DNA of 64,000 nucleotides from Magallana gigas (lineage: Eukaryota). Positions 1 to 8,400 of this stretch are shown here, piece by piece. Made by a program: the position numbers and the translations under genes. Under the pieces are notes generated by a model. It had not been told where the DNA came from, did not search any database, and saw only the letters and a list, made by a program, of their open reading frames with translations. How positions within the stretch are numbered: position 1 is the stretch's first letter; every line of letters starts with the position of its first letter. The stretch covers positions 19,468,001-19,532,000 of the forward strand of contig NC_088856.1 in assembly GCF_963853765.1 (NCBI RefSeq), read 5' to 3'.

Positions 1-783
1 TATTACCATTTCTAAGTTTGTAAGACTTGGATTTCTTACAGTAAAGTAAGGACCTGAAAATAAATTCCTCAGAGGAAGGCATAATATTTGCTTTCCGTAA
101 ATATCTCTCTAACATAGCTACAGGACATGTATCATTTGGAGTTCTTGAAATAACCACAGTGCTTCCTTCTTTGTATACATCGGTCTTGCTTCTTTCTATA
201 AACAACGAAACATGAGAATCAAAAATACATATGTTAGATCTTTTCAAATTTATCAGTTCGGAAAAACGCAAAAATCCAGCATATGCTATTAAACACATGC
301 AGCACAATCGTATATCTTGTAAGGAATCCGATTCTTTTCCAAATTTTTTCACTAATTTTGATAACACTTCCGGTGAAATGGGCTCTTTTTTCTTTACGGT
401 ATGGCTGACTGATCTTATAGCTCCTTCTTTCACTGAATTGACAAGAGTGGAATCGCATGGATTTTTAAAGTCTCCTAGAGAATGAGCCCAACTTATAGAA
501 TATACCGCTTCTTGAATTTTAGCTACAGAATGGAATTTAGTCGACAAGTGAATAATGTATATAGCGACGTTTGTCTCTGAAGCTGGTAAAGGGCTAATCT
601 GGGGTATAAAGGAAGAACACCACTTGCAAAAAGCGTTAAAAGCATATTTGTATTTTTTACATGTGTTTTTCGCTTTGGATTTTAAACAATACTCTGGGAT
701 TGCGTTTTTCAGAGCTGATATGCGCTGATCCTCGTTATCATTTCTGGAGAGGACTTCCTTCCATCTCCCCACAGAAAAAATGT
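1..783 (-). CDS. Tyrosine recombinase (YR) of the DIRS-order element; partial, continues beyond position 1
   Basis: Manual translation of an uninterrupted minus frame (~260 aa): DIFSVGRWKEVL...KAKNTCKKYKYAFNAFCKWC...CLIAYAGFLRFSELINLKRSNI...FIERSKTDVYKEG...CPVAMLERYL...FIFRSL. It contains the YR catalytic Arg motif (GFLRFSEL) and the SKTD motif. Absent from the ORF track. There is no ATG at the 5' end, which is preceded by a polypyrimidine tract and CAG at 786-784. Confidence 0.92.
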
Positions 784-963
784 CTGAAAAACGTAAACAA
801 AAAACACCAATCAATATGACAGAATAACGATGCAGATTTTATGAAAATATCAAGCCATGTATTTATCACATTCGTGATAACGTTGTTTTATACCTTTTTA
901 AAACATATAAATAAGTATCATATACACTTAATATCATGCATTAGCTATATACCAAAGTCATAT

Positions 964-1330
964 CCACTGGTTACACCACGCTGTGTACCAGGACTTACTC
1001 ATGTCCACTGGCTACACCATGCTATGTACCAGGACTTACTCAATTCCACTGGCTACACCATGCTATGTACCAGGACTTGCTCATTACAACTGGCTACACC
1101 ATGCTATGTACCAGGACTTGCTCATTTCAACTGGCTACACCATGCTATGTACCAGGACTTGCTCATTTCAACTGGCTACACCATGCTATGTACCAGGACT
1201 TACTCAACTCCACTGGCTACACCATGCTACATGTATGTACCAGGACTTACTCAACTCCACTGGCTACACCATGCTATGTACCAGGACTTGCTCATTTCAA
1301 CTGGCTACACCATGCTATGTACCAGGACTT
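964..1330. repeat. Tandem array of a 41-bp unit (8 full + 1 partial), each with an internal inverted repeat
   Basis: Units start at 964, 1005, 1046, 1087, 1128, 1169, 1210 (47 bp, 6-bp insertion), 1257 and 1298. Core actggctacaccatgctatgtaccaggactt; variation is mainly in the ~10-bp linker. Confidence 0.97.
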
Positions 1331-1480
1331 AACTCCAAAATTTTTTATTTACTATATAAAGTATCATTCACCCCGATCAATTAATCGTCAAAATGTATGT
1401 ATCAAGACTTGAATGTAAAACAAAGTAAAAAGATATTATATGTTCAAAAACATCAACTTTTTTATTTCAGCAACAATACA

Positions 1481-3535
1481 TCAACATTTACCAGCATCTA
1501 ATCTTACGGCCAACACGGGAGTACAAAAATTGTTAGATCCAAATATAGAGTGTTTGTTCAATCCTTGTTGAAAAATATTTTGGGGGTTTTTAAATTCGAT
1601 TACTTCTTGTACGTAACCACGATAGCTTAGATTTTTCCCAAAAATAAAAGTCCAAAAAGGAGAAGAACTCCACTTTGGAACAATAAGAGTACCCTTGGCC
1701 TTACAGCTCACAAGATATTTGATAGTCTTAATTATCAGAATAACAGGTGGCACAAGCCAGTTATTTTCATCACTCCAATTCTGACAAAAACAATCGACAT
1801 TTTCTGAACCTGGATTCCAAAACAAGGAATTAAATCTTTCCAACTTTTTATTATAGGAATTTGCAAGGCGATCTATTGTATGTGGACCCCACAATTCATC
1901 CATGAATCGGAAAAATTCCTTTGTCACACCCCAATCTTCATAGTCTATGATATTGCTTATATAATCAGCTTTGATATTTTCTTGTCTTGGAATCCATTGA
2001 ATATCAATATTAATACCTTTCTGAATACAAGCAGAGAAAATATTCATGGCTAACTCTTGTAATTCCAATTTCATACTCCCACATTGCACTATTTTTACAC
2101 ATGCTTGATTATCTGTGAACCACTTAATAGTCTTTGATGCAAATCTGTCTTGAAAACATTTCACAGTTTGTTCAATGGCTCTTAATTCACGCCACGTAGA
2201 ACTTTTCTTAGCCTCATGCTCTTTCCACATTAAATGAAAAACCTCTTGATTTACATCAATAGTATAAGACCCTGCTGCTACATTACTTGCATCAGAATAA
2301 ACAACAATATCTTTCTCAAAAACACTACATAGTTTCTTTTTGTTAGATACAAAAATATTCAAAAGCCAAAAGTTCAACTCTTTCAATATGTGTTCCATTT
2401 TTTCTGAATTGAGAACACTATCCCAAGACGACCTTGACACTATTTTCATATAACAATAGCGTGTCATAATTCTACAAACATTCCCGAAGACGGGAGAGAG
2501 CGAAATAATTTTACCTGTCACCTTAGCAAGTTGTCTCGCCGTAACTTTAGGCATTAATTTTAACAAACACTCTAATGAAGACTTTAAGTCATCAATACGC
2601 CTTTCTGGAATACACAATGTAAAGTCGATCGAATTCCAAACTAAACCCAACCATTCTAACTGCTGAACTGGTTGAAAAACAGACTTCTCGATATTAACCA
2701 GAAAACCAGCCTTGTCCAACGTATCTTGAATAAATTTTGAAACATTCTCACACTGATTTTTTGTATTTGACAACACTAAACCATCATCTAAGTACAAAAC
2801 GATGTCTATACAGTTTTCTCTAAAGTATTTAACAATAGGGCGCAAGCATTTAGTAAATACATACGGCGCTGTACTAAGTCCAAATGGTAAAACCGTAAAA
2901 CAGTAAAACTTGTCCTTCCATGAAAAACCTAAATAAGTCTGGGACTTAGTAGAAATATCAATGTGATGGTAACCTGAACGTAAATCGAACTTGATACAAA
3001 AACAATCTTGTCTGAAGTATTCTAAAGCTATTTTCCAGTCTTCAAATTTAATGCGTTCTTTTTTAATGTAAGTATTCAGAGTGCTCAAATCCAAAATTAA
3101 ACGTTTTTTATTTTTGTTTTCGGCCACGCTTAAAGGACTGACAAAGAACGGCTGGAAGGGAACTTCTACAATACATTCAGACAAAAATAACTGTTGAATA
3201 GCATCAGATACAAAGGAATCATTTCGTAATGCAGACTTGTTGTTATTCATGCACATAGAAGGTGGATTGGCAGTAAACGGAATATCATAGCCCGATTTTA
3301 TTATTTTCAAAATTGAGTCATAAGTATTCATACTCTCCCAAAATGATATATGTCTAAATAAGCTTTTCTTTATACCCTTTGTGTACATAAATGATTTTTC
3401 GTTATCAATTACATCAAAATAATCAATGTGCTGAAGAATTTCAGAATCACTTTCACAATTGATATCAAAATACTTATCTTCCACTAGAGCTCTGTTGTCT
3501 GGAAGTTGTTTCCAGCGGGACACTTGTTCTTCCAA
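1481..3535 (-). CDS. Pol of DIRS-order retrotransposon: reverse transcriptase + RNase H + C-terminal DNA adenine methyltransferase-like domain
   Basis: RT motifs FDLRSGYHHI, VLPFGLSTAP, LYLDDGL. RNase H motifs VYSDASN, STWRELRAI, FTDNQ, WIPRQENIKADYIS. MT-like tail TIDRLANSYN...DCFCQNW...WLVPP...GTLIVPKW. The track's start codon is TTG, not ATG. Confidence 0.95.
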   Translation of the reverse strand: MEEQVSRWKQLPDNRALVEDKYFDINCESDSEILQHIDYFDVIDNEKSFMYTKGIKKSLFRHISFWESMNTYDSILKIIKSGYDIPFTANPPSMCMNNNKSALRNDSFVSDAIQQLFLSECIVEVPFQPFFVSPLSVAENKNKKRLILDLSTLNTYIKKERIKFEDWKIALEYFRQDCFCIKFDLRSGYHHIDISTKSQTYLGFSWKDKFYCFTVLPFGLSTAPYVFTKCLRPIVKYFRENCIDIVLYLDDGLVLSNTKNQCENVSKFIQDTLDKAGFLVNIEKSVFQPVQQLEWLGLVWNSIDFTLCIPERRIDDLKSSLECLLKLMPKVTARQLAKVTGKIISLSPVFGNVCRIMTRYCYMKIVSRSSWDSVLNSEKMEHILKELNFWLLNIFVSNKKKLCSVFEKDIVVYSDASNVAAGSYTIDVNQEVFHLMWKEHEAKKSSTWRELRAIEQTVKCFQDRFASKTIKWFTDNQACVKIVQCGSMKLELQELAMNIFSACIQKGINIDIQWIPRQENIKADYISNIIDYEDWGVTKEFFRFMDELWGPHTIDRLANSYNKKLERFNSLFWNPGSENVDCFCQNWSDENNWLVPPVILIIKTIKYLVSCKAKGTLIVPKWSSSPFWTFIFGKNLSYRGYVQEVIEFKNPQNIFQQGLNKHSIFGSNNFCTPVLAVRLDAGKC

Positions 3536-4251
3536 TGGCCATACTTAAAGCATCCGAAGCAAACGTCGGTTGGCTGTGGGGTTCTCTGTCTCCCACGAAA
3601 ATACGCCTGCTTGGGGTAGGCGAGAAAAGGCTGAGAAGCGCTAACAAGAGCAGGAGTTTGAGCGGCCAATTGAGCGGCGGATCCAGCAGCGGCGGACACA
3701 TAGCCTCTGTTCGGGACACTTTGATATGGGCGCGGCCTGTATTTAAGACGGAACTGCTTGACACTCCTGAGGGCGCGGTTTTCCGCACTACGGATCTTCT
3801 TTTCATCCTCTGAATCATCTGTAATATCACTGGCCTTGTATTCATTCACCGTTTTCCAGCCTGCTGGTGACGAGTCGGCGATTCTGATATGCTTATTACG
3901 GGTATCGATGTCGTGAATTATCTCGCTGATTAACAACAATGATTTGTGATCACCTTTCGATTTCACAATTTTCTCCAATTTAAGGACCTTCTCTTTAAGC
4001 CCTTCATTAAACTCGAACTGGATCTTGTTACCCTCCGATTTCAGCTTATTCCCGATATTTTCTTTCACCTTCTTCTGCAAATACTCGGAATTCTGAGACT
4101 GCTCCGTTTGTAGTTTTTCTGTTAACTCTTCAAACTGGTTTTTTATAACAGTAGTAAATAAATTTACTACGTCGGTCAGGTCAGGCGCAGATTCACTCTG
4201 TTCATTCTCTTTCTCAATCACTATATCATCGGCATTAACTGGTCGAGACAT
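3484..4251 (-). CDS. Gag-like ORF1 with C-terminal CCHC zinc knuckle
   Basis: 255 aa, ATG start. Zinc knuckle CFGCFKYGHWKNKC; central RNKHIRIADSSPAGWKTVNEY...DDSEDEKKIRSAE block typical of YR-retrotransposon gag. Overlaps the pol frame. Confidence 0.9.
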   Translation of the reverse strand: MSRPVNADDIVIEKENEQSESAPDLTDVVNLFTTVIKNQFEELTEKLQTEQSQNSEYLQKKVKENIGNKLKSEGNKIQFEFNEGLKEKVLKLEKIVKSKGDHKSLLLISEIIHDIDTRNKHIRIADSSPAGWKTVNEYKASDITDDSEDEKKIRSAENRALRSVKQFRLKYRPRPYQSVPNRGYVSAAAGSAAQLAAQTPALVSASQPFLAYPKQAYFRGRQRTPQPTDVCFGCFKYGHWKNKCPAGNNFQTTEL

Positions 4252-5415
4252 ATTACATGTACGTGCAAATGCGGCAAAGAAAAGCCTTCGAATGAGTGAA
4301 AATCGTGCTTAACTTGAATACCTGTTCTACAGGTTATATGCTATAAATAGTAGCCAATGGCTACAGGTTTAAATATATAAAACCAAAACATAGAACATGT
4401 GTTCTAGTACCTATGATAAATTAATTGTATATACGTCCCTGATTTGACCTATTAAAGAGGTTTTGTGTGTAGTGATCCATTAGGAGTGGATTAAAGATTT
4501 AATTTTAATTAGATTGATAATAATATAAAGGAATATTATACCTGGAGAATTGAAAACTACTAAAAATATTAAATTGTGTTCCTGATCAGACATGGCCTTT
4601 ATCAGTATTTGGGTTTTGACTACTACTGTACTAACCAATCTTTCGGTAAATTAAACTTTAAGCTTTGTTGTACGGTAAATATTGGCATTTCTGAAGAAAA
4701 TTTTTAGGCTTTAGTTTTTTTATTTTCTCTTCTTTGAAAAGGATTTGGACCTTTCAATGAATTCTCTTTGCTCATGTTTCTTAAGTTTGATTTGTGACAA
4801 AGAAGTCTGGTTGAAATTTGCCACATGGTTAAAAAAAAATATGCAGGCAAAAACCTTCAAATCCTGAAGTCAATTGAAATAATAGGGGTCAACACGTCAC
4901 ATTCTAATGTCTGTTACTGGTATTTTAACAGGTTGAAATAAACATTTACATGTATGTATGAAATTAAACTTGCATATTGAACTAGCAATAAAAAGACACA
5001 ATAACAGAATTTCAAGTTAAAAATGTATTAAATTAATTTATCTTTCAAACAAATTATACAAGTTATAATTTACAAAGGACTAGATGAAAAAAGTTACATA
5101 CAGCTCTTGAAGCATACATGGACGTGCATAGAAAAATCTCTGCGAAGAACATGTACATGTTCTCTTATCTTTACAGACTTTTCAACAAAGATATTTCTGA
5201 TAAAAAAAATGTCTCTATAAGAACTTGTATACTTGATCACTAAAATGTACATCATCCATGCGATTAGTCACGGTTTCTTGGCACTTCAAAGTTCAAATAC
5301 CATCACAGATATTCCCATATGTACAATAATTGGTCCCTTGAAGTCGCTGAGTAATCAAGAGCATGCTAGTAGTAATATGGCATGATGGGAGCAGCAAAGC
5401 ATGCTGGGAATGCTC

Positions 5416-8400
5416 TCAAGATGCTGAAGACCCTTCCTCCTCTCCCTCCTCTTCTACTACAACTTGGTATTGAGACACCCACTCTTCTGGATTTTTTTCA
5501 TACAACTACAACAAAAATAGACTAAATAATGATGCTACTTCTAAAATGTTTCCGCTTTTCAAGAACTTTTAGTTATTTTTGTAAACATTTTCTGAAAGTT
5601 AAAAAGCTTCCATTTCTGAACAGCCTTCAAACTCAATCTTGCAGGTATTAGACCATTGATACATGTAATTTGCAGACATTTTCTAGCCCTGTAGACTCAT
5701 CACCCTAAGGACGTTCAAAGTTAGGTGTCAAAACAATCCACAATGTCAAAACAGATGGACCTGTGGATTCTGCAGTTACATCATTCTGATTTTGTTATGA
5801 AATGATTATGAAATGATTGATGCATCTCACCTGACTGACAAAGTCCAGACAGTTCCTTTTTGTGATTTCCTTCTTAGCTCTGAACCCCCATCTGAACTCA
5901 AAGACCGGGGGGTCGGTGTTTGGCTGACGAGTGTACTCGAGGTACCCTTGTCTCACAAACTCAACAGTCAGCTGCTTTTTGACATCACCAAAGACAGGAT
6001 GAGTCACACTGCAAAAAATACAACACCAGAACATGTACAATTACTGAAAGAAAAAATTCTTAATTAAAAACTGACTAGATATTTTAGAATTTTTATTCTA
6101 AAAGGTTTGAATCAAATAAAGAAATCAACACTGTTTTGAGTATTACATCTATTTAATATAAAGATAAATGCATAAATTATCAAAAAACAATAATTGAAAG
6201 TAATTACTTACTCTTGATCAACTTTAAGTTTTCTCAGCATGTGATAAAGTTGAGCTAAAATAAAAAGTAGACATTCTGGTAATCATTCAAATGTTCTTTT
6301 ATACTACATACCTTTTTCAACATTTTCAAAACAACACCTTTCTTAATTTTATTTTTCATACAAAAAACATATCACACAATGAAACTCATGTTAGTAAAAT
6401 GCAAGTTTTCACTAGTTTCAAAGAGTTTCAATATATTAATCATGAAGGCAACAAATGGGGATGAAAAGTCGTCTCAGCTGTATGGGTCTGGAACCCAGGG
6501 TTTCCAGGGTACTGTGTAAGCACTAAGCTAAAGAGACCTAGTAAGCCAGTATTGACTGACAATTGCACATTTGTTAACTTGATAACAATGAGTTTTAAAC
6601 AAGTACTTACAATCTACCATAACTTCTCCATTCATAAATATAGCACTGAGTACGACCATCAGGAGTCCAGTCTTGGCGTGATTTTCGTCCGACCAATCGA
6701 CGGGGGTCAAGGTCAAGTTGGGGTCACTCTCCAGCTGCTCATCTACGTCGGTGTCTAACGTATTGACCAGGATATATGTACCTTTCTGTTTGTCCTCTAA
6801 ACTCACCAACTCTATCCCAAAGATCTGAAGAATGCCAGGGAAAATAACATTTTTTAAAGATAAAATTAACCTCTGGATTGGTAAAATCTTTATATTAAGA
6901 TCTGAGTTAGTAAAATGAACTCTTTTTAAACGTGGCAAAAATACTCCCAAGAGTTCCTGCACATGTACTGTAGATACCCTTACTCTAGGTGATTTTTCTC
7001 CCAGCAAAAATCCAGTAACATATATTTATTTGCAATCAATATTTCTTATAAATTGCTGATAATTAACTTGTTCATGTATGAATAACCTTTAGGTTATGAA
7101 AACATAACCCCAAGAAGTTGTTGGCACATGAAATTACAAGAAAAGAAAGTTTTCATTAATTGAAAACTTTCCTTAATAGATGATGTATGTACATATTATT
7201 ATCTATAAATTACTGAATAAATGTAAGCAAGAAAAGACTCAATTCATTCACATGTATTCACCTTTCTAAGCTTTTCTTCGGCTAGTTTCATCATCACAGG
7301 GAGAGCTTTACTGTGTTCCTTTAATACCTGCTTATTTATATCTGTACAAAACCATTTTACAATCTATAAACATCAACATATTCCTTATGATTAAAAATAA
7401 TTCTTACTCAGTTTTATGGTCACCGAGATTCCATTGGCTTATTGATGTTCAAACATTAGCTATAATGATCCAATATGACCCCTATCCAGTCACAAATGTT
7501 TTCTCTCTTATAAAAACCATTCACAATATCTGCTGCACTGCTCTTTGCAGGGTATATTTACAGTTTTATAAAGCTATTGTTTCATTTACTGCTACATCAT
7601 ATACTGTGGATTCCTAATTAAGAGCGAGGAATTTTTATTGGCATAAAATCATGAGAAGCACATCTCGCAATTTTTTTAATTTGCTTTTTTTTTTTCAAAC
7701 ATACGTAAACTAAATGAAATTATAATAATTGGCATTTCACAATCTTATATCTAATACTAGTGATTTGATGCAAAATTGTTGAATCGTGGAATTTAGTTCT
7801 TGCGTAAAATAAGGAATCTACAGTTATTGTTAGTAGTTATTTACCAAATAAAACTTTGCCAATCTACAGCAATTTGCTACTGCAAAAAAACAGTAACACA
7901 GCTATTGAGAAAGGGTTAACTTATAAATTAAGATATTCTTTAAATTAATCTTTACTTTACCAAGAAAGTAAAGACATACATACTAATACATCCCTGCTTT
8001 AACATGGGGAAAAATAAGTAAAACTGTAACTCAAAACATCAAACAGCGAAATATGGCTTTCTCCATCCATGAAATTAATTGTAGGAGTTTCATATTCCTA
8101 CCAAGTTTTTTGATAGGTAGCTTCTTTTGGTCCATTATCAACAGGAACTGGACGAGGTCATGCAGCTTCTTTTCCTGTTCTCCGCGGTCCATACTCGAGT
8201 GAGCTTTCTCTGCTTGTGTAGCAGACACCTGAGAACTTGGTATTCTGTCATTATCAGGCTAAAATACAAATTAACATACAAATAAATAACTGCAATCCAA
8301 TTAATTACTAGGGAGGCTACTGTCTACAATTCAATTCAGTTTATTTACTCAAACCATGAAATGGTGCATGAGGTCAATCAGTCTACAGGGACAATCATAA

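Follow-up and report, generated by a model that had tools for sequence, protein, structure and literature searches.

A predicted U2-type AT-AC intron as the probable source of the tyrosine recombinase in a PAT-like retrotransposon of the oyster Magallana gigas

The tyrosine recombinase (YR) of a PAT-like retrotransposon in the oyster Magallana gigas is probably (with a probability of roughly three in four) translated from a spliced subgenomic RNA, from which a predicted 2,685-nt U2-type AT-AC intron (3477–793) would be removed to place a leader peptide in frame with the YR. This interpretation is built on genomic sequence and computed protein models. Positions are those of the window, that is, the whole 64,000-nt stretch of DNA analyzed, and a slash within a motif marks the exon–intron boundary. 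The features of the element are as follows.

4263..4426, minus strand: 5′ split direct repeat A1 (A2 and B1/B2 lie to the left of the window)
3484..4251, minus strand: gag with a CX2CX4HX4C zinc knuckle
3478..3845, minus strand: pol leader ("transframe") frame overlapping gag, with its ATG at 3845; predicted to encode the beginning of the YR protein
1481..3544, minus strand: pol core with RT (RVT_1, E 2e-21), RNase H (weak), and a methyltransferase (MT)-like C-terminus
3470..3480, minus strand: conserved 5′ splice site AAG/ATAAGTAT, a U2-type AT donor with its first intron base at 3477, phase 1 in the pol frame
793..3477, minus strand: predicted AT-AC intron, 2,685 nt, containing RT, RNase H, MT, and the spacer; sister-family RefSeq models show the corresponding junction
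2857..2867, minus strand: cryptic GT donor with its first intron base at 2864; P0162 (Logan, 2 contigs) joins it to CAG 784 out of the pol frame
1484..1494, minus strand: pol-end donor CTG/GTAAAT, family-specific
958..1331, minus strand: nine 41-nt tandem repeats, each a predicted bulged hairpin
793..814, minus strand: branch-like TTGAT (A at 811), pyrimidine tract, and AC 3′ splice site (794–793), phase 1 in the YR frame
784..786, minus strand: CAG acceptor for GT donors, located 9 nt past the AC, whose phase it shares
1..792, minus strand: YR coding exon, continuing to window −244 (Phage_integrase, E 1e-11 for the whole ORF)

The element is 5.2 kb long, extends on the minus strand from window 4426 to about −778, and carries gag, pol (RT, RNase H, and a weak MT match), and then the YR on the same strand. 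Its split direct repeats are ordered A1..B1A2..B2 and are perfect (164 nt for A, 96 nt for B), with the internal pair located downstream of the YR. The YR on the same strand after RT and RNase H, the split direct repeats, and the Gag zinc finger together make up the layout that the available passages of PMC4157794 describe for the echinoderm form of Pat1-like (PAT) elements in the order DIRS; those passages are silent on how the YR is expressed, whereas here a conserved intron is predicted as its source. No DIRS1-like inverted terminal repeats with an internal complementary region were found, all self-matches of ≥40 nt being direct. The putative MT-like domain after RNase H had Dam as its sole match (E 0.022; 14.9 bits, the cut-off being 28.1), and this weak match, together with the approximately 170 aa that follow RNase H, argues tentatively against placement in Ngaro, which has no MT domain. 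The label PAT-like is given here on layout and domain content. Relative to its siblings L002 and L134, the window copy has a 14-nt deletion at 3489/3488 that puts the pol leader out of register; L002, which is 98.85% identical, is deletion-free and has a pol frame of 792 aa. Because the deletion precedes the donor, the window copy cannot use the AT-AC route in frame, and it is probably non-autonomous.

The predicted donor lies just past the gag stop (G/ATAAGTAT, base 3477) and pairs in frame with the AC ending at 793, which is nine bases ahead of the CAG acceptor. The complement of the oyster U1 5′ end is CAGGTAAGTAT, and the AT donor matches it at 9 of 11 positions, with an A at +1; among the GT, GC, AT, and AC sites scored on the sense strand from 4426 to 784, it was the best U1 match. 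The two ends thus combine a donor that is U2-consensus except for the A at +1 with a conserved in-frame AC past a pyrimidine tract, as expected of a U2-type AT-AC intron. U12-type AT-AC introns have the 5′ site ATATCCTT and the branch site TCCTTAAC; a U12-type intron was rejected because the donor is ATAAGTAT instead and no U12 branch site occurred in the acceptor stretches examined. The AT donor surfaced only by direct comparison of the region past the gag knuckle. With an approximate donor weight matrix, no GT site in the element scored as a strong donor, and codon alignments of pol and gag contained no universal GT column. Roughly 0.4 Mb from the window, about 30 U1 snRNA genes are arranged in tandem at approximately 2.1-kb spacing (G000:C4:18980351-19062404).

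We compared 45 further element stretches from the same genome (5 siblings, 39 relatives, and the extended locus of the window element itself), counting one row per family and leaving out L003–L006 and other broken copies. Most families have a donor-like motif directly after the gag stop. In 14 of the 33 lineages scored, no site in the 170 nt past the gag knuckle scored above the motif G/AT[AG]AGTAT, which is in phase 1 of the pol frame in 13 of these 14; in L034 the phase is 2, and the pol frame is shifted again downstream. Alignment places an in-phase AC at the homologous position in 12 of the 14 AT-donor lineages and AA in the other two. In L016, an AT and a GT donor tie in score. When a blind rule was applied, an in-phase AC was present in 11/14 AT-donor lineages and 0/14 others, against a background of 32/940 positions; since the lineages are related, such counts lack independence. 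An ATAAGT-like phase-0 motif is present in the control lineages L025, L027, L031, and L099; it falls outside the blind rule and fits no explanation given here. In L025, L027, L031, and L035, gag and pol form one frame with almost no spacer ahead of the YR, and the phase-0 ATAAGT-like motif past the knuckle overlaps a GT in phase 1, splicing from which would fuse Gag to the YR.

The two ends also change in concert. In L015/L016 the donor is a GT lying four bases further downstream and the acceptor an AG shifted downstream by one base, each in phase 2; L021/L023/L032 have GT-AG ends in phase 0/0; and in the L028 group the AC is in frame, whereas the CAG lies 14 nt past it and out of frame (phase 0). 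In a midpoint-rooted YR tree of 36 rows, the AT-AC label requires three changes, at least two of which are forced by strongly supported branches. The AT-AC rows form two groups, both supported; one of these, with eight AT-AC rows (94/95 support), also holds the GT-AG phase-2 pair. Being midpoint-rooted, the tree does not show the direction of change between AT-AC and GT-AG. Across families, the comparison shows conservation of the putative donor and of the AC, agreement in phase, and joint shifts of the two.

Protein models from sister families and other bivalves point to the same junction. RefSeq XP_065922975.1 (P0258), which matches locus L007 of the same genome, reads NEVD-G-FADIF, and L007 genomic DNA yields exactly this reading through a join at G/ATAAGT..ATAC/GA. 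Mussel models, read from proteins with no DNA, obey the AT-AC rule in that an unspliced R becomes G and an unspliced H becomes D: P0047 has VN-G-FSDIF, compared with VN-DKYL in P0121 and LR-FSDIF in P0221, and P0239 has VN-D-FSEVF, compared with TH-FSEVF in P0051. In the P0047 cluster, 10 of the 15 members listed are 481-aa models. The scallop model P0102, also known as a protein only, with no DNA, is compatible with the rule, and in P0272, a model for the L015/L016 lineages, we found the residue predicted beforehand for the phase-2 GT-AG product. RefSeq AT-AC introns come from read alignments; the models themselves are computed, and the RNA support behind these AT-AC junctions is inferred. 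No AT-AC junctions beyond those already known were present among 16 N-termini of 50%-cluster representatives. For the window family, a search with the leader peptide found a leader-YR protein among 0 of 916 candidates, and the only spliced form found was the Logan-derived P0162 (2 contigs), which joins 2864 to 784 out of the pol frame.

In a raw-read test covering four runs (712 reads aligned, with approximately 1 in 100 reads of each run sampled), no 3478-to-792 joint was found; this negative result is weak because the depth near the donor was 0–1.7 and the reference carries its 14-nt deletion 11 nt before the donor. The reads share indels with decayed, truncated copies, and read depth was rejected for that reason as a gauge of YR versus pol expression. 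Many unspliced reads crossed the acceptor, with depths in the four runs of 7, 6, 3, and 0 at position 799 and 10, 10, 3, and 2 at position 744.

Intron-less copies, which the sequence-only reading had suggested looking for, were sought as traces of retrotransposed spliced RNA, and the result was mixed: one pol-less element was found, but it belongs to another family and has no intron-bearing parent in the same assembly. This element, L129 (G000:C3:6520501-6524300), is a complete, single-copy element bounded by split direct repeats, in which gag is present and the leader and YR form one 524-aa frame, fused a few codons past the gag stop. It fits a retrotransposed spliced RNA and is a candidate for one. 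Of six candidates with gag near the YR, L129 alone fits; L130–L133 and L135 were rejected as processed copies because they break away from the splice sites. No processed copies occurred among 80 metagenome loci, in which 29 knuckles were examined and one false match (L062) was obtained.

Splicing had originally been placed elsewhere. The sequence-only reading predicted a 708-nt GT-AG intron (1491–784) that joins the end of pol to the YR, creating an RT-RNaseH-MT-YR polyprotein. Its description of the sequence was accurate on recheck: the YR frame opens after the TAA at 841–839 and has its first in-frame ATG at 298; TTGAT at 814–810 is followed by a T-rich tract and a CAG with its AG at 785–784; CTG/GTAAAT stands at 1491, three codons ahead of the pol stop; and donor and acceptor are both in phase 1, 708 nt apart. 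The nine-copy 41-nt array at 958–1331 and the AC at 794–793 had escaped that reading. The conservation it called for divided the two sites. The inspected families share a pyrimidine tract and YAG at the homologous position where the YR begins, and the acceptor CAG at 784 itself appears to be used because P0162 joins the GT donor at 2864 exactly to it. The donor is one of four GT sites in the element with an 8/11 U1 match, three of which are in phase 1, and it is identical in three close siblings, but the 80%-identical copy L006 has GTCAAT in its place and the other families compared lack it. An in-phase GT reaching 8/11 within the last 30 nt of pol occurs in the window family alone (1/17 lineages), and 10 of the 17 have no in-phase GT there at all. 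Models of other families (P0054, P0191, P0007, and P0121) are among several that join internal pol GT donors to CAG, as such an intron would do, but no oyster model read links the pol C-terminus with the YR, and the predicted 1492-to-783 joint did not appear above the listing threshold in the four raw-read runs, two of which had an acceptor depth of approximately 10; given the indels that the reads share with decayed copies, this negative result is weak. Splicing into the acceptor region as the supply of the ATG-less YR, with the rest of the transcripts staying unspliced, is therefore retained from the earlier proposal, while its donor and its polyprotein product are not. That this 708-nt intron is the main source of recombinase is highly unlikely, although a minor Pol-YR isoform may exist in the window family alone.

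Other donors, acceptors, and promoters have to be weighed against the AT-AC intron. The AT donor overlaps a GT four bases on (3473), and if this GT were spliced to CAG, the YR could be translated from a third-frame ATG overlapping the gag stop, by stop-start re-initiation. RefSeq P0197/P0202 read MINVF for the L011 family, using this GT at +5 with the third-frame ATG rather than the AT; 7 of the 14 AT lineages have a suitable ATG ahead of the site, and the gag-pol-fused L025/L027/L031/L035 fit a phase-1 GT at the same spot. However, the window family and six other lineages have AAG instead of ATG, the phase-0 CAG of the L028 group would make the join out of frame, and the in-phase AC would be left unexplained, so that we regard this route as very improbable for the YR in general. 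The acceptor could instead be the CAG at 784 while the donor remains AT, giving an AT-AG intron, possibly after A-to-I editing of +1. The CAG 9 nt past the AC is conserved in the window clade, where this join would be in frame, and human RNA contains AT-AG sites that editing converts to GT-AG (PMC4176328, Table 2). P0258, P0047, and P0239 nevertheless retain three extra residues and so use the AC, and the CAG is out of frame in the L028 group; an AT-AG intron is accordingly given little credence.

A further route requires no long intron. A promoter inside the spacer could drive the YR, with either a mini-exon whose ATG lies ahead of a phase-1 GTAAGT in the last repeat (998) or a non-AUG start. 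The YR depth exceeds the spacer depth, reads extend unspliced into the spacer, a TATAAAA-like motif is located near 891–885, and ATGA/GTAAGT is present in all four siblings that cover the site. Against this, the reads bear the indels of decayed, 5′-truncated copies such as L005, poly(A) libraries are 3′-biased, the read starts do not pile up, and ATGA/GTAAGT is missing from the spacers of other families; we judge such a promoter the least credible source of the YR. Spliced-leader trans-splicing was also considered as a YR route and dropped, as the literature listing gave it no support in oysters.

In the AT-AC intron that we favor, the unspliced RNA would be both the genome and the message for Gag and Pol, while a minority of the RNA would lose the 2.7-kb intron and encode leader-YR, such that Pol and the YR would have a common N-terminal leader. 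Pairing of U1 with the donor is predicted to involve positions −2, −1, and +2 to +8, the A at +1 notwithstanding. The A-starting intron would then select the AC over the nearby CAG, which may serve both as a pyrimidine-tract/AG recognition element and as the acceptor for GT donors. According to section 20 of PMC1557818, a final C rescues an intron whose first base has been changed from G to A, and in yeast and human tests A-starting introns splice to a final C less efficiently. These properties would explain both the choice of the AC and a low splicing rate, the latter being inferred; the unusual ends would keep splicing inefficient and leave most of the RNA full length for Gag, Pol, and packaging. 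It is conceivable, though somewhat short of an even bet, that AT-AC ends on the major spliceosome act as a throttle on the ratio of genome RNA to recombinase mRNA in the oyster/mussel/scallop lineage, and that they have been exchanged with GT-AG more than once, both ends together.

Retroviral env and copia gag are likewise expressed through spliced subgenomic RNAs from one promoter, the unspliced RNA being both the genome and the pol message, and weak splice sites set the ratio of spliced to unspliced RNA. Unlike in those systems, splicing is predicted here to yield the integration enzyme, joined to the pol leader, and the weakness would reside in the terminal bases of the intron. U2-type AT-AC ("type II") introns are known from SCN4A/SCN5A and TAF2; in section 20 and Table 1 of PMC1557818, they number 24 of 610,067 introns, all in host genes, or 0.003% of introns in five model genomes. 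The predicted intron resembles those of SCN4A/SCN5A and TAF2 in its donor, which is U2-consensus save for the A at +1, in its AC end, and in its conservation among relatives. It differs from them in that it is located in a mobile element, encloses a whole ORF, and must mostly be retained, and, unlike host-gene AT-AC introns, it alternates with GT-AG between lineages.

Neither spliced YR expression nor an AT-AC retrotransposon intron is mentioned in the passages covered of PMC1557818, PMC4176328, PMC4157794, PMC3266345, PMC7192593, PMC6681497, PMC3783388, PMC8547959, PMC3537659, PMC9940879, and PMC5753468. Titles and the beginnings of abstracts likewise gave neither in print, within a scope that excludes the Goodwin/Poulter papers, which possibly mention splicing. 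How DIRS-order elements express a start-less recombinase ORF is left unexplained in the passages covered, and the AT-AC prediction supplies a precisely defined junction, accessible to RT-PCR. If the prediction is true, annotation restricted to GT-AG introns mispredicts such recombinases, and U2-type AT-AC ends have been kept across many diverged mobile-element families with matched switches to or from GT-AG, which would surprise specialists in both transposons and splicing and would provide a natural series on how the spliceosome pairs the first and last intron bases.

The 41-nt repeats (958–1331) are predicted to fold with z −2.0; in related families, variant-stem hairpins stand at the place of this array, and no Rfam family scored above the cut-off in the spacer. 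Because the array is within the part removed, the predicted hairpins may mark full-length RNA. L013/L015, L020, L021/L024, L022, and L032 each have their own short repeat array in the pol-YR spacer, unlike the window hairpin in sequence. The spacers of L007 and L011 contain strong acceptor-like sites with donor-like sites 2–26 nt on, pairs that are possible micro-exons or recursive sites.

Several observations concern the insertion itself. Reads from three runs join L001 4214–4216 to 9427, that is, the two flanks of the element, forming an empty site, and the insertion appears to be absent from the alleles of other animals. A 13-nt inverted repeat is made up by the two flanks (window 4427–4440 and about −779 to −800), with no target duplication seen, so that the insertion site seems to have been palindromic. 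At about 30 listed places in the genome, the 164-nt A repeat recurs separately at 86–99% identity with no gag region; these copies are probably truncated 3′ ends or non-autonomous derivatives. A host gene with introns and a MAGE domain (Pfam MAGE, E 9e-7) lies at about window 5460–7025 on the minus strand, with its last exon approximately 1 kb from the 5′ end of the element.
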